DNA from: Eledone cirrhosa
Lineage: Eukaryota
Direction of reading: 5' to 3'
NCBI GenBank assembly: GCA_964016885.1
Contig: OZ024745.1
Span: 125,178,001-125,242,000 of the forward strand
DNA length: 64,000 nt
Part shown: positions 5,433-28,560 of the stretch, one piece after another
How the letters are laid out: each line of letters starts with the position of its first letter
Numbering within the stretch: the stretch's first letter is position 1
The notes under the pieces: model-generated
What the model saw: the letters and a program-made list of their open reading frames with translations, nothing else
Database searches by the model: none
What the model was told of the DNA's origin: nothing
Program-made: the position numbers and the translations under genes

Positions 5433-6428
<996 letters not shown>

Positions 6429-24374: not shown

Positions 24375-26285
24375 CAGCAGCACTAAAATTAACAATATCA
24401 TTGATGGTTCTCCTTTTCTTAGACTTTGTTGTTAACGTTGGCAGGAAATATACAAAGCATTGTAGTAAATCTCATTACAATCATGAAATTATATTTATTG
24501 AAGGTATTGGAAAAGTATAATAGTCTGTTACGATGTGTTCAACCTTTGTTTCTTTTCTAAGTGAGACATATTTGCAATGGAGCCGATATTATAAAATAGA
24601 CGACACAATGCTAATTGAAAATGTATAGGGGTTTAAAAAATACCAGTGGAATGGTAATAAAATTTTATAATTCCAGACATATCATTAGGTACCATGAAAT
24701 GTATAGGAGAGTAATATATGTGTAATGTTTGTATGGTTTTAGAACTCCAATTGGGTACTGACAATAAGTATATTTCTTATATGTATCTATTGTAACATAA
24801 TAGGGAAGCTACATTTTGTGACTTATTCCTTTATTGGTATCATATGGAACATTTGTGAAGAGTAATACTTAAATGTTTATAATCAAGAAGTAACAATTCG
24901 ATTCAGACTGCTTTTAAAAGGCTAAACTGAGATATATAGTGTTAAAAAAAAAATATTTTTCTTCAATTGGAAAAAGAGCTAAAATTTTGTTGGTAGAAAA
25001 TTGTGTTACGATGTTCATGCCTTCTTCTAATGATATAAAAATAATGTTTGGAAGTAAATGAATTCAGATCGAAATGCCATCTGAGTTGTTCGTTAAGATA
25101 CTGAAATTGAGCCAATAACGAAGTCATGCCATATACACTTCTCCAGAGCCTAAAACTTGGTGGTTTATTAACACACATCCGATCGAGCCTAGATTGCATC
25201 ATCTTTTACTACCTTACAAATCACCATCCTATTTCTCTTCGAAGTAAATATCCGTCACTTGTACGCCATGCCAGAAAATCAGCTGTCCAAGCTATATTTT
25301 ATCCTAAAATTTGAATTCGAAAATCTTGTCTTTCTAATTATGTATGTCAAGGTGCATATTGAATGTAGATTGCACTTCTACGCCACCATATCTCTTATCT
25401 GACATCTAAATATAAGACATTTTGTCGTCGGTGAAATGTTAATATGCGCTTTCTGTAATATTAAGTTGGTAAGAGCTAAATATATCTCGGGAATGAGTTC
25501 CAATTCCTCATGAGTAAATATCACATGAGATTTATTAGCTATTTTTTTAGACAGCCAAATGAAGTGAAACATTTAAATAAAAGGCATTGCTCAGCGCCAA
25601 AATGAAATCCTCGAGAGCTATAAGATAATTGTGCGAAATAAGATACTTGACGTTAGTTTGTATTAAGTAACTCTGTTTTCTTAACTTTTGAATCATGCAT
25701 ATAAACTAGATAATTAACAGTAGTACTATCGTGTATTTTCACCTAAGAATTGGTTATATTTTAAACTAAGAATTGGTTAATACAAACATTTAAATACCAT
25801 CAGAAAAAATGAAAGACCTATGCTTTCACATTAAGCATTACACTACAATTGTATATATGAGTAACGTTTCTAACTAGAACCCTCTTCTATAAACATTTTA
25901 TAGATTAAGAAGTATTGCATTACGATTCTTAAACTGTTGCAGTGGCTTTTCTCTTAGACAAAGTGAAGCTAGTTACCAGATTGGTTGCTCAGATAATGTA
26001 ATTGTATAATATAAATGAGCTTTACTTCACTAATGATATAACGCCTATACATTTATGTTGGATTTTCGTTTATGAATAAATGAAAACCTGTTAATGTGCA
26101 ACTAATTAAATAGTTATCTAATAACATTTTTTTATGTTTGACAGCAAAGAAATATTTCACTTTTCTCTCTTGAACACGAGAAACCATTTCCATAGTCCTA
26201 AGTCAATGTTAATACACATTTCATCAAAAAAGAAGTATCGTACATTTTATAATTAGAAATCCTATACCTGCTATAATGTATGTAT

Positions 26286-26340
<55 letters not shown>

Positions 26341-26341
<1 letters not shown>

Positions 26342-26928
26342 CTGGAGTGAAAATTTTAGTAAGTAAGTTAATTTTTTAAAATTTTCTTATTTTACGTCTT
26401 TTATATTATTGTTCTGCATCCTTTTGCATTGAACCACCTAGGTACTATGACATAACCTGTGTATTTGCTAGCATTAGCGTACATCTGTACGCATATGTTA
26501 GTAGATATACTAAATTCTCTATATTTATCTCCAAATTACTTATTTGTCGAGCAAACCTGCCAAAACCAACACTAATTTATTGGTGTGTTACTAGGCTTCT
26601 GTCATCTTACCATCCCACTCCTACCGACTAGCCTCTGTGTCACGTGATTGATTCTTTAGAATCTGCCATTTGACCAGCGACAGCGAGATTTTCAGTGCAT
26701 GGAATTCAGTCCCCGCTAGCTGCTCCATTTACCGAATTATTATTATTTTTATATGAGTCCCAGTGTCCGCGCATTGCCTGGAGACTTAGCTGAGAATAGA
26801 CTCCCTGATGACGCAATGAATTCTCGACAGTTTATTACGTAACTGTCTTTATCCCATTGCAGAAACTAATTAGTTGGAGTGAAAATTTTAGTAAGTAAGT
26901 TAATTTTTTTAAATTTTCTTATTTTACG

Positions 26929-26935
<7 letters not shown>
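26341..26935 (+). mobile_element. Retrozyme-like element: about 1.1 copies of a 532-bp HHR monomer
   Basis: About 60-bp direct repeat GGAGTGAAAATTTTAGTAAGTAAG... at 26344 and 26876 (period 532). (TA)n on both sides; no ORF. Confidence 0.7.
26800..26880 (+). ncRNA. Type I hammerhead ribozyme with extended stem II
   Basis: ACTCC CTGATGA cGCAATG...GACAGTT/AACTGTC...CATTGCa GAAA CTAATTAG TT GGAGT. Confidence 0.75.
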
Positions 26936-26992
<57 letters not shown>

Positions 26993-27131
26993 ATGCATAT
27001 ATTGTAGCAGTAGCAGGTATAGGATTTCTAACTTTAAAATATAGAAAGTACGCTAGAGCCGAAGTGTACGATAAAGTTATATCTACGTATATACAAATAG
27101 ATTGTGGAACCGAAACTATACCAGTGGGGTC

Positions 27132-27188
27132 TAGTACGAACATCGATTATAGTACGAACATCGATTATAGTACGAACGTCGATTATAG
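27132..27188. repeat. 18-bp minisatellite, 3 copies (TAGTACGAACATCGATTA)
   Basis: Direct inspection. Confidence 0.9.
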
Positions 27189-27759
27189 GCGTTTATCATT
27201 TATTTTCAATTTACAAAGAAATTCGTATTTTTTGTTATATCTACATACTTACATATTCAAAATAGGTAACTTTATATACACATAGATGCAGTCACACTTA
27301 GGCACTCGGTATATATATATATATACAGATATGACTTACATTTTCTTACATTTCGAATGCTTGGGTACACTTTAATGCATATCTTAACTACAAACAAGAA
27401 CGCTATTTATATGTAAGTTAGTACATTCATTTTAGAATACAACTAAGAGTTAATGGCTATATAAATTTATTAAATGCGTGTTTCATTGTGATTGTTTGGA
27501 TGGTAAATACGACATTTGATGTGAATCCATCTAGGCCCCAAAATCGATAAAAGCGTGTTATCATCTTTTCTGGCATGTTTACATACTTATTAACAATGCA
27601 ATTATTTATATACACATTGTGATAATTTCGCTTACGCATTCTATATACATTTCTCAAATTATATAATACACACTGTTATGGAAAATAAGACATACAGTCA
27701 AAACTAATGAGATTTCTATTGTTATATTTCTATTATGAATAATCGTTTGATGGATAATT

Positions 27760-28560
27760 TCCCCAAATCCCTCGCTTGGCAGTGCTACCGGGGGAGCACT
27801 GCCGGTTCGAGATAAACTCTACAGGCACGGAAGTACTGTCAGACGGACCTGCCCAAGATGCGCACAGAGCGACGAAACCGTTCTGCACGCACTCGTCCAG
27901 TGTCCGTGCATTACTGACTTGTGGAGTTATGTCGAACCGCTGTGGTCGCGTGTAGAACGGATCCGGCTATCGGCCGAGTCCATAGTGAAGATCGACCCGC
28001 CGCCTTCTTTTGGCTAGGAAGGGCAGGCAATTTTCCTCTGTCTGGTGGCAGTAGCGAAAGAGGTTGTATGGTGGACGAGGTTGAAAGGACTGAAGACAGA
28101 CACTTTTCTCTTCGGCCAATCCCTCATCAACTTTTTCAAGTTTCACTTGGAAAGGAGGGTGAGGGTTGAGAGAGAAGTGCTTCCCCCCAGTACATTTGCT
28201 GAAAGGTGGGTGAATGTGGCGTGAATGGCCCGTGTGAGTGGGCCTACTCTGGTCATGCGGCTGTAGGTAGGTAAATTTGAGGAGCAGAGGGGTGCCCTTC
28301 CAGGGTGCTCTCGAAGCGTCGGGTCGTTAAGGATTGGTGGGCTACCTGAGCGAACCCTGGGTGGTCATCCCCCCTATTGGGGAATTTTTTCTTGTAATGT
28401 TATTGTTACTTTATTGTTACTTTGTTATTGTTACTTTGTTATTGTTACTTTGTTATTGTTATTCATATTATTTACTCGATTTTTCTGTAAAACCCCACTG
28501 TTCCAGTCTTTTGTATTGTCCCCTATATTCGGCCCTTGTGGCCAATAAATTAAATCATTA
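27760..28560 (+). mobile_element. 3' end of a Tx1/L1-like LINE (zf-RVT domain and 3' UTR)
   Basis: SLAWQCYR/GALPVRDKLYRHGSTVRRTCPRCAQSDETVLHALVQCP (CCHC zf-RVT), frameshifted; ends at AATAAATTAAATC. Confidence 0.8.

Follow-up and report, generated by a model that had tools for sequence, protein, structure and literature searches.

Non-LTR retrozymes are a known class of mobile element (Cervera and de la Pena 2020, PMC7229834) and have been described, in the accessible text of a recent preprint, as non-autonomous derivatives of Penelope-like elements (PLEs) (Li et al. 2026, bioRxiv 10.64898/2026.07.22.740005). PLE insertions are 5′-truncated, include inverted copies, carry a tail at one of their ends and favour microsatellites (PMC8557442, text available), and the tail has been traced in vitro to two reverse-transcription start sites (PMC11167929, main text). 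The hammerhead ribozymes of PLEs combine a short helix I with a long helix II, carry one additional base following position 9 and have a helix III that is palindromic; they are described in the accessible text as cleaving weakly, as dimers (PMC4209133). Their role has been called unclear (PMC8557442). According to the main text of PMC11167929, cleavage is unnecessary for a PLE in vitro, uncut RNA is the main template, and no RNA-seq reads end at the ribozyme cut of the anole element. The class of element described below is already known, as are ribozyme-set 5′ ends, in the case of R2 (PMC3774820, text available). Within the main texts of the open literature, including PMC6431247, we found no mapping of insertion 5′ ends to the hammerhead cut of a PLE or retrozyme and no count of PLE tail pairing; genomic ends are mapped in Fig. 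S2 of PMC11167929, which may affect the novelty of end mapping.

Layout of the insertion

We analysed a 64,000-nt stretch of the Eledone cirrhosa genome (hereafter the window), in which an earlier note had described a 532-bp insertion beginning almost exactly at the cleavage site of its own predicted ribozyme. Unit positions are numbered q1–q532, with q1 the first base 3′ of the predicted cut. The insertion proved to be longer than one unit: it comprises q1–q532 followed by q1–q60 between two (TA)n tracts, 1.1 units in total (26344–26935). Its features are as follows.

26288–26340, no strand assigned: left (TA)n target tract, 26.5 copies
26341–26343, + strand: junction bases GCT, which are either filler added to a cut-site end or the GTT of uncut template altered by T>C
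26344–26875, + strand: one complete 532-nt non-coding unit, cut site to cut site (q1–q532), with only short chance frames
26349–26386, + strand: predicted AU-rich hairpin q6–q43, beneath a broad 5′-end peak
26402–26406, + strand: internal copy of fixed 3′ end A (q59–63)
26459–26510, + strand: predicted strong hairpin q116–q167, just 5′ of 3′ end B (z −6.5 for q1–192)
26518–26528, + strand: internal copy of fixed 3′ end B (q175–185), a site used by other insertions; the stretch from A to B is the 122-nt tail
26800–26880, + strand: type I hammerhead with stem I ACTCC/GGAGT and predicted cut at 26875/26876
26805–26811, 26813–26860, 26862–26865 and 26865–26874, + strand: hammerhead core, extended stem II, GAAA box and palindromic stem III, respectively
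26876–26935, + strand: partial second unit q1–q60, stopping at fixed 3′ end A and merging into (TA)n
26934–26990, no strand assigned: right (TA)n target tract, 28.5 copies

The two unit copies appear as a direct repeat of 68 nt with a spacing of 532 and 97% identity. Its two mismatches fall at 26342 and 26378, the former at U16.1 of the cleavage triplet (TAGCT in the left copy versus TAGTT). Inspection of the reading frames across the insertion yielded short chance frames and no meaningful ORF. The sequences outside both (TA)n tracts (26241–26290 and about 26986–27045) are mutual inverted copies over about 50–60 nt, and the insertion likely sits between the two ends of another TA-associated element. 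Farther along the window lie an 18-nt minisatellite (3.2 copies, 27132–27188) and, at 27.7–28.3 kb, a frame (27751–28017) that by eye resembles the C-terminal region of a LINE protein.

A type I hammerhead ribozyme

The cut predicted in the earlier note, TAGTT^GGAGT at 26875/26876, is borne out by the core boxes, with CTGATGA at 26805 and GAAA at 26862; the final T of TAGTT lies at 26875 and GGAGT runs from 26876, giving predicted cleavage as GUU^GGAGU. The CUGANGA and GAAA boxes surround three helices with helix I open, the arrangement of a type I hammerhead. Stem III is the palindrome ACTAATTAGT, and stem II is long with an internal loop. A search of Rfam at gathering thresholds returned no match. 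Across 19 hand-picked, related variants, stem pairing is kept in 90.7% of cells. Four stem II pairs are changed on both sides and are thus compensatory, with a score reached by 0/500 shuffles, a result that the kinship of the 19 variants inflates. The G10.1–C11.1 pair is G–C in 18/19 sequences, but is set off by a C.A mismatch.

Hammerhead cleavage triplets follow the rule NUH, as does GUU in the window copy. Among 230 motifs, a set that includes loci chosen for variants, the triplet was GTT in 204, GTA in 11 and GTC in 2. In 97 copies the cleavage base is not T; the first 30 of these included 15 ribozymes classed as intact, in which H17 was A (13) or C (2) and never G. A GUU triplet and a C.A mismatch where stem II begins would be expected to reduce hammerhead activity, and the ribozyme is predicted to be weak or dimer-dependent. 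Two subfamilies, both found among loci L121–L148, L036, L059, L063, L064, L079, L108 and L109, offer a natural comparison for cleavage rate: one has a GUA triplet and a compensated stem II, and the other, divergent at 74% identity, has a rebuilt stem II with core and stem III unchanged.

The window as a whole holds 31 matches to CTGANGA...GAAA cores against 2.85 expected. Sixteen of them lie in a second hammerhead tandem element (56.6–61.3 kb), which has a 311-bp unit; its 7 minus-strand and 9 plus-strand copies meet head to head near 58.6 kb, a PLE-type inverted anatomy in an unrelated family. Lone cores occur at 5748, 8863, 13746, 33743, 34419 and elsewhere; those outside the 311-bp array are likely the ends of other PLE families.

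A Penelope-like family with two fixed 3′ ends

Genome-wide counts over 3.0 Gb gave 6,174 occurrences of the first 20 nt after the cut and 936 of the exact 26-nt pattern for the right end of the window copy. Relatives were taken from a DNA similarity search (40 of 2,127 candidates scored), and arms from the first 94 of the 936 right-end places, all on one contig (90 loci). Arrays hold 1–3+ units, and 46 full units span 508–571 nt. The unit is non-coding, with a GC content of about 37%.

The 3′ ends are fixed at two sites, A (q59–63) and B (q175–185), which lie 122 nt apart and each run into (TA)n or (TC)n. Many insertions consist of two arms joined 5′ to 5′, that is, head to head. Such joints, where not cut by the edge of a locus (n = 110), were A+B in 100 cases, A–A in 2, B–B in none and other in 8, and A+B pairing accounted for 55/62 joints in the three locus sets chosen without A as anchor; certain loci appear in more than one set, and the distinct A–B pairs number 94. 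The two arms of one insertion overlap in sequence, and an arm's own partner was its best or second-best match in 33/37 testable pairs, each compared with about 36 others. At the level of sequence similarity, this comparison shows that paired arms derive from one source.

The family displays PLE anatomy, with copies that are truncated at the 5′ end, form partial tandems or include inverted 5′ copies, a tail at one end, and insertion into microsatellites. We read it as a Penelope-like retrozyme of the non-autonomous kind, present in about 6,200 cut-site copies and with (TA)n as its target. Simple blocked twin priming was rejected, as the 5′ ends of B arms are not clustered at q55–70 and the arms overlap.

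The genome also harbours an abundant PLE family encoding a reverse transcriptase (RT) with a C-terminal GIY-YIG domain (loci L211–L240), many of its open frames reaching up to about 775 aa. It carries its own minimal hammerhead with a palindromic stem III, about 400 nt past the matched region, and has two 3′ ends about 55 nt apart that run into (TA)n or (TC)n. This family, the only PLE family compared (30 loci), shows no similarity to the 532-nt unit in its body and shares no detectable DNA with it; it is a candidate only for the mobilizing partner.

5′ ends at the predicted cut site

The earlier note had proposed that self-cleavage defined the 5′ end of the copied RNA, and had named scattered 5′ ends in other copies as the outcome that would count against this. 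Scattered ends are largely what we observed. In 178 distinct arms from loci chosen regardless of the cut (L031–L120 and L181–L210), starts are spread across the whole unit at a background of 0.16% per nt, and 4 fall within q530–q4 versus 2.9 expected, no significant excess. Genome-wide, TT is retained upstream of q1 in 5,955/6,174 copies, so the 5′ end of the family is not defined by self-cleavage: about 97% of copies with the first 20 nt after the cut extend upstream through an intact ribozyme. What stands of the proposal is a small, local peak of starts at the cut.

To estimate starts, copies breaking from the template were counted per position, the first 30 loci of each list were classified, and the result was scaled up; the background of 0.16% per nt predicts about 10 starts per position. 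Position by position, the estimates were as follows.

+2: junctions in 6/30 of 102 copies, about 20 starts
+1: junctions in 16/30 of 97 copies (15/30 in a second classification), about 52 (33–70) starts
−1: junctions in 18/30 of 122 copies, about 73 (50–94) starts
−2: junctions in 12/30 of 78 copies, about 31 (18–46) starts; by eye, locus L271 is a mutant with its junction farther upstream
−3: junctions in 6/30 of 47 copies, about 9 (4–18) starts, equal to background

A few of the sampled loci are duplicated. Together, +1, −1 and −2 hold about 150 starts versus 30 expected, an approximately fivefold excess with a sharp upstream edge. Genome-wide, about 2.5% of passes end at these three positions, versus about 0.5% from background. 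At q89, which served as a control and is standard in 4,359 copies and variant in 319, junctions were found by eye in 0/30 loci, all 30 being intact subfamily variants at that position. The similarity-ranked set L001–L030 was excluded from these rates, as it favours copies covering q1; among these 30 closest relatives, an arm starts at or beside the cut in L003, L004, L005, L016, L017 and L030.

Both arms start within 2 nt of the cut in 14 head-to-head insertions. Five of these are sampled loci (L123, L137, L138, L142 and L291), and the others are 9 of 10 regions picked for suggestive coordinates, the tenth having filler between its cut-site arms. Nine of the 14 consist solely of a cut-to-A and a cut-to-B stretch; the other 5 have an A arm of roughly 600 nt, like that of the window copy. 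The template has no palindrome at the cut where these symmetric joints meet. Fillers are present in 14/38 cut-site joints, and microhomology of at least 4 nt in 0/38, versus 8/29 other joints, a contrast given no weight because the reference pool of the script inflates overlaps. Near-symmetric joints also occur at other positions (13/94).

Proposed mechanism and alternatives

We consider it probable, with reasonable confidence, that the element is a non-coding type I hammerhead tandem repeat in (TA)n, likely moved by a Penelope-like RT/GIY-YIG protein from mostly uncut multi-unit RNA, and that a small share of templates likely cleaved themselves, leading to run-off at the cut. On this model, arrays would be transcribed by read-through into multi-unit RNA, and the PLE protein would nick both strands of (TA)n and prime on a single RNA at both A and B. 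Each cDNA would stop randomly or at a real RNA 5′ end, and the pair would then be end-joined, a direct insertion like the window copy representing the survival of one arm only. The weak ribozyme would cut a minority of junctions, giving rise to arms that start at +1, often with an untemplated A that would read as T at −1. The window copy itself would have been primed at A, extended through one uncut ribozyme and terminated at the next cut site.

The model as a whole is supported by the compensation in stem II, the absence of G at H17 in intact variants, the pairing of A and B from one source, and the two start sites and mainly uncut template reported in PMC11167929. Cleaved templates are indicated by the peak at +1/−1/−2, the drop at −3, the symmetric cut-site insertions and the lack of a peak at the stronger hairpin. 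Against them, the height of the peak is extrapolated from samples of 30 loci to the whole genome, and starts at −1/−2 outnumber those at +1, which calls for an untemplated A or a chance T, or else an uncut template. The 178 arms taken alone show no significant excess at the cut, near-symmetric joints are common at other positions too, the anole RNA-seq data of PMC11167929 have no reads ending at the cut, and no partner sharing sequence was found in the one PLE family compared. The ribozyme likely cuts some of the copied RNAs in vivo, and cleavage is likely not needed for spread. The earlier note had read the locus as an indirect sign of ribozyme activity in vivo; this is supported for the family, where the peak and the 14 symmetric insertions point to occasional cleavage, while for the window copy the chances are about even.

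More tentatively, and with slightly less than even confidence, we propose that the insertions keep a direct in vivo footprint of cleavage by PLE-type hammerheads, visible at the exact site in a few percent of them and in as many as about a fifth when ends trimmed into q5–45 are counted, together with obligate two-site priming. A single RNA would serve both target strands, being copied onto one from A and onto its counterpart from B; the cDNAs would each run off where the ribozyme had created a 5′ end, leaving the new copy without the upstream ribozyme. Thousands of recent copies make insertion ends countable as a cleavage readout, and the near-strict A+B pairing lets the two-start-site model of the PLE tail be tested on genomic copies. 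Cleavage appears to occur in the germ line at low frequency, to be dispensable and to shorten the new copy when it occurs. This is a modest and testable in vivo signal on what hammerheads do in PLEs.

The alternative that survives best, although unlikely, dispenses with cleavage: RT of uncut RNA would stall at the folded ribozyme, or end-joining would prefer the AT-rich hairpin just 3′ of it, and starts would accumulate near the cut merely through their position. Most of the excess ends do lie at q5–45, in a broad zone that overlies the predicted self-complementary hairpin q6–43. Starts per nt amount to 0.97% at q1–22 and 0.44% at q23–45, versus 0.08% at q46–67 and 0.22% at q507–532, and 73% of arms entering q45 read through q1, versus 93% expected. 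The excess persists in arms >200 nt and is 7.5-fold in unpaired arms; both arms end in the zone in 14/63 pairs, and the excess shrinks to 1.9-fold (P 0.07) in arms whose partner ends elsewhere. Starts at −1/−2 moreover include a template-matching T, and the TAGCT of the window copy fits the uncut template. However, the stronger predicted hairpin q116–167 shows no start peak (0.08–0.12% per nt at q155–198), making plain stalling at structure less likely, and q45–66, at 86% AT, has only 0.10% starts per nt. The peak also includes the G-rich +1 with a non-T upstream (about 52 starts) and falls at −3, and the symmetric cut-site joints arise where the template has no palindrome. If some templates were cleaved, as we favour, the broad excess may represent cut ends trimmed back to AT microhomology; the exact-site peak weighs more than the broad one.

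Marginally less probable still are ligated circles copied by rolling reverse transcription, with read-through representing re-ligated junctions, cut-site starts coming from unligated or re-nicked molecules, and a highly active ribozyme. Animal retrozymes do form circles (PMC7229834, accessible text), and some adjacent units within one arm are nearly identical, with 0–3 differences in about 467 nt. Others, by contrast, differ at 7–14 sites, as much as separate insertions do, and the two overlapping unit copies in the window differ at 26378. In a shared-allele test of circle versus linear templates, 48/118 differences were shared (misaligned pair L088 dropped) against 26% at random, a comparison confounded by CpG hot spots. 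The circle junction that the earlier note had offered as a source of the 5′ end is not upheld, as a ligated junction predicts no end there.

It is highly improbable that the copied RNA owes its 5′ end as a rule to self-cleavage or a circle junction, in the manner of R2: the window copy and the six loci named above among the 30 closest relatives start at or beside the cut, but the genome census of q1–20 copies largely refutes it, most arms that reach q45 continue past q1, 5′ ends are spread over the entire unit, and a closed circle has no end at which to stop.

The left boundary of the window copy

GGAGT starts at 26344, after (TA)n-GCT and one 532-bp unit upstream of the predicted cut, in agreement with the earlier note, which placed the left boundary within a few nt of the equivalent cut site. 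The TAGCT that precedes it matches the uncut template TAGTT at 4/5 bases, so the boundary can be placed anywhere from −5 to +1. Intact AGCT variants occurred in 8/30 sampled loci, corresponding to about 0.5% of copies. By a rough estimate, run-off at a cleaved end with added filler and an uncut template with T>C at U16.1 are about equally probable, and the odds that the window copy is a run-off product are accordingly balanced; on the uncut reading, the template would have been joined through TA microhomology. As a single copy, its boundary matches the cut only weakly beyond chance. On either reading, the RNA behind the window copy crossed one uncut (or re-ligated) ribozyme at 26875.

Comparison with known systems

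With the metazoan non-LTR retrozymes, as described in the accessible texts of PMC7229834 and bioRxiv 10.64898/2026.07.22.740005, the Eledone element shares a non-coding, tandem organization with a single type I hammerhead per unit (GC about 37% here) and a weak palindromic helix III; a mismatch at the base of helix II is shared with axolotl HHR_Amex2. Its unit of 532–571 nt is above the 150–450 bp given in PMC7229834 and within the 51–972 bp of the preprint. Expression as linear and circular monomers and in vitro self-cleavage are features of the known class. In the available text of these two sources, insertion ends are not mapped against the cut.

The family resembles PLEs with pLTR hammerheads and a tail in its 5′-truncated copies and partial tandems, in the inversion of 5′ copies, in its (TA)n targets and in having two 3′ ends, and their hammerheads share the extra nucleotide after core position 9, the long helix II and the short helix I (accessible texts of PMC4209133, PMC8557442 and PMC11167929). 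Compared with the PLEs of these texts, the unit here has no ORF and a tail of about 122 nt instead of 30–40. A+B pairing is nearly strict here, and a minority of ends lie at the cut, unlike in the anole RNA-seq data (PMC11167929, main text).

The R2 retrotransposon, with its 5′ HDV-like ribozyme, shares the principle that self-cleavage can set the 5′ end of a reverse-transcribed RNA (PMC3774820, text available). In Drosophila, R2 copies normally have their 5′ junction at the cut, whereas in Eledone the ribozyme is a hammerhead, and full-length copies mostly do not begin at its cut, where about 2.5% of passes end.
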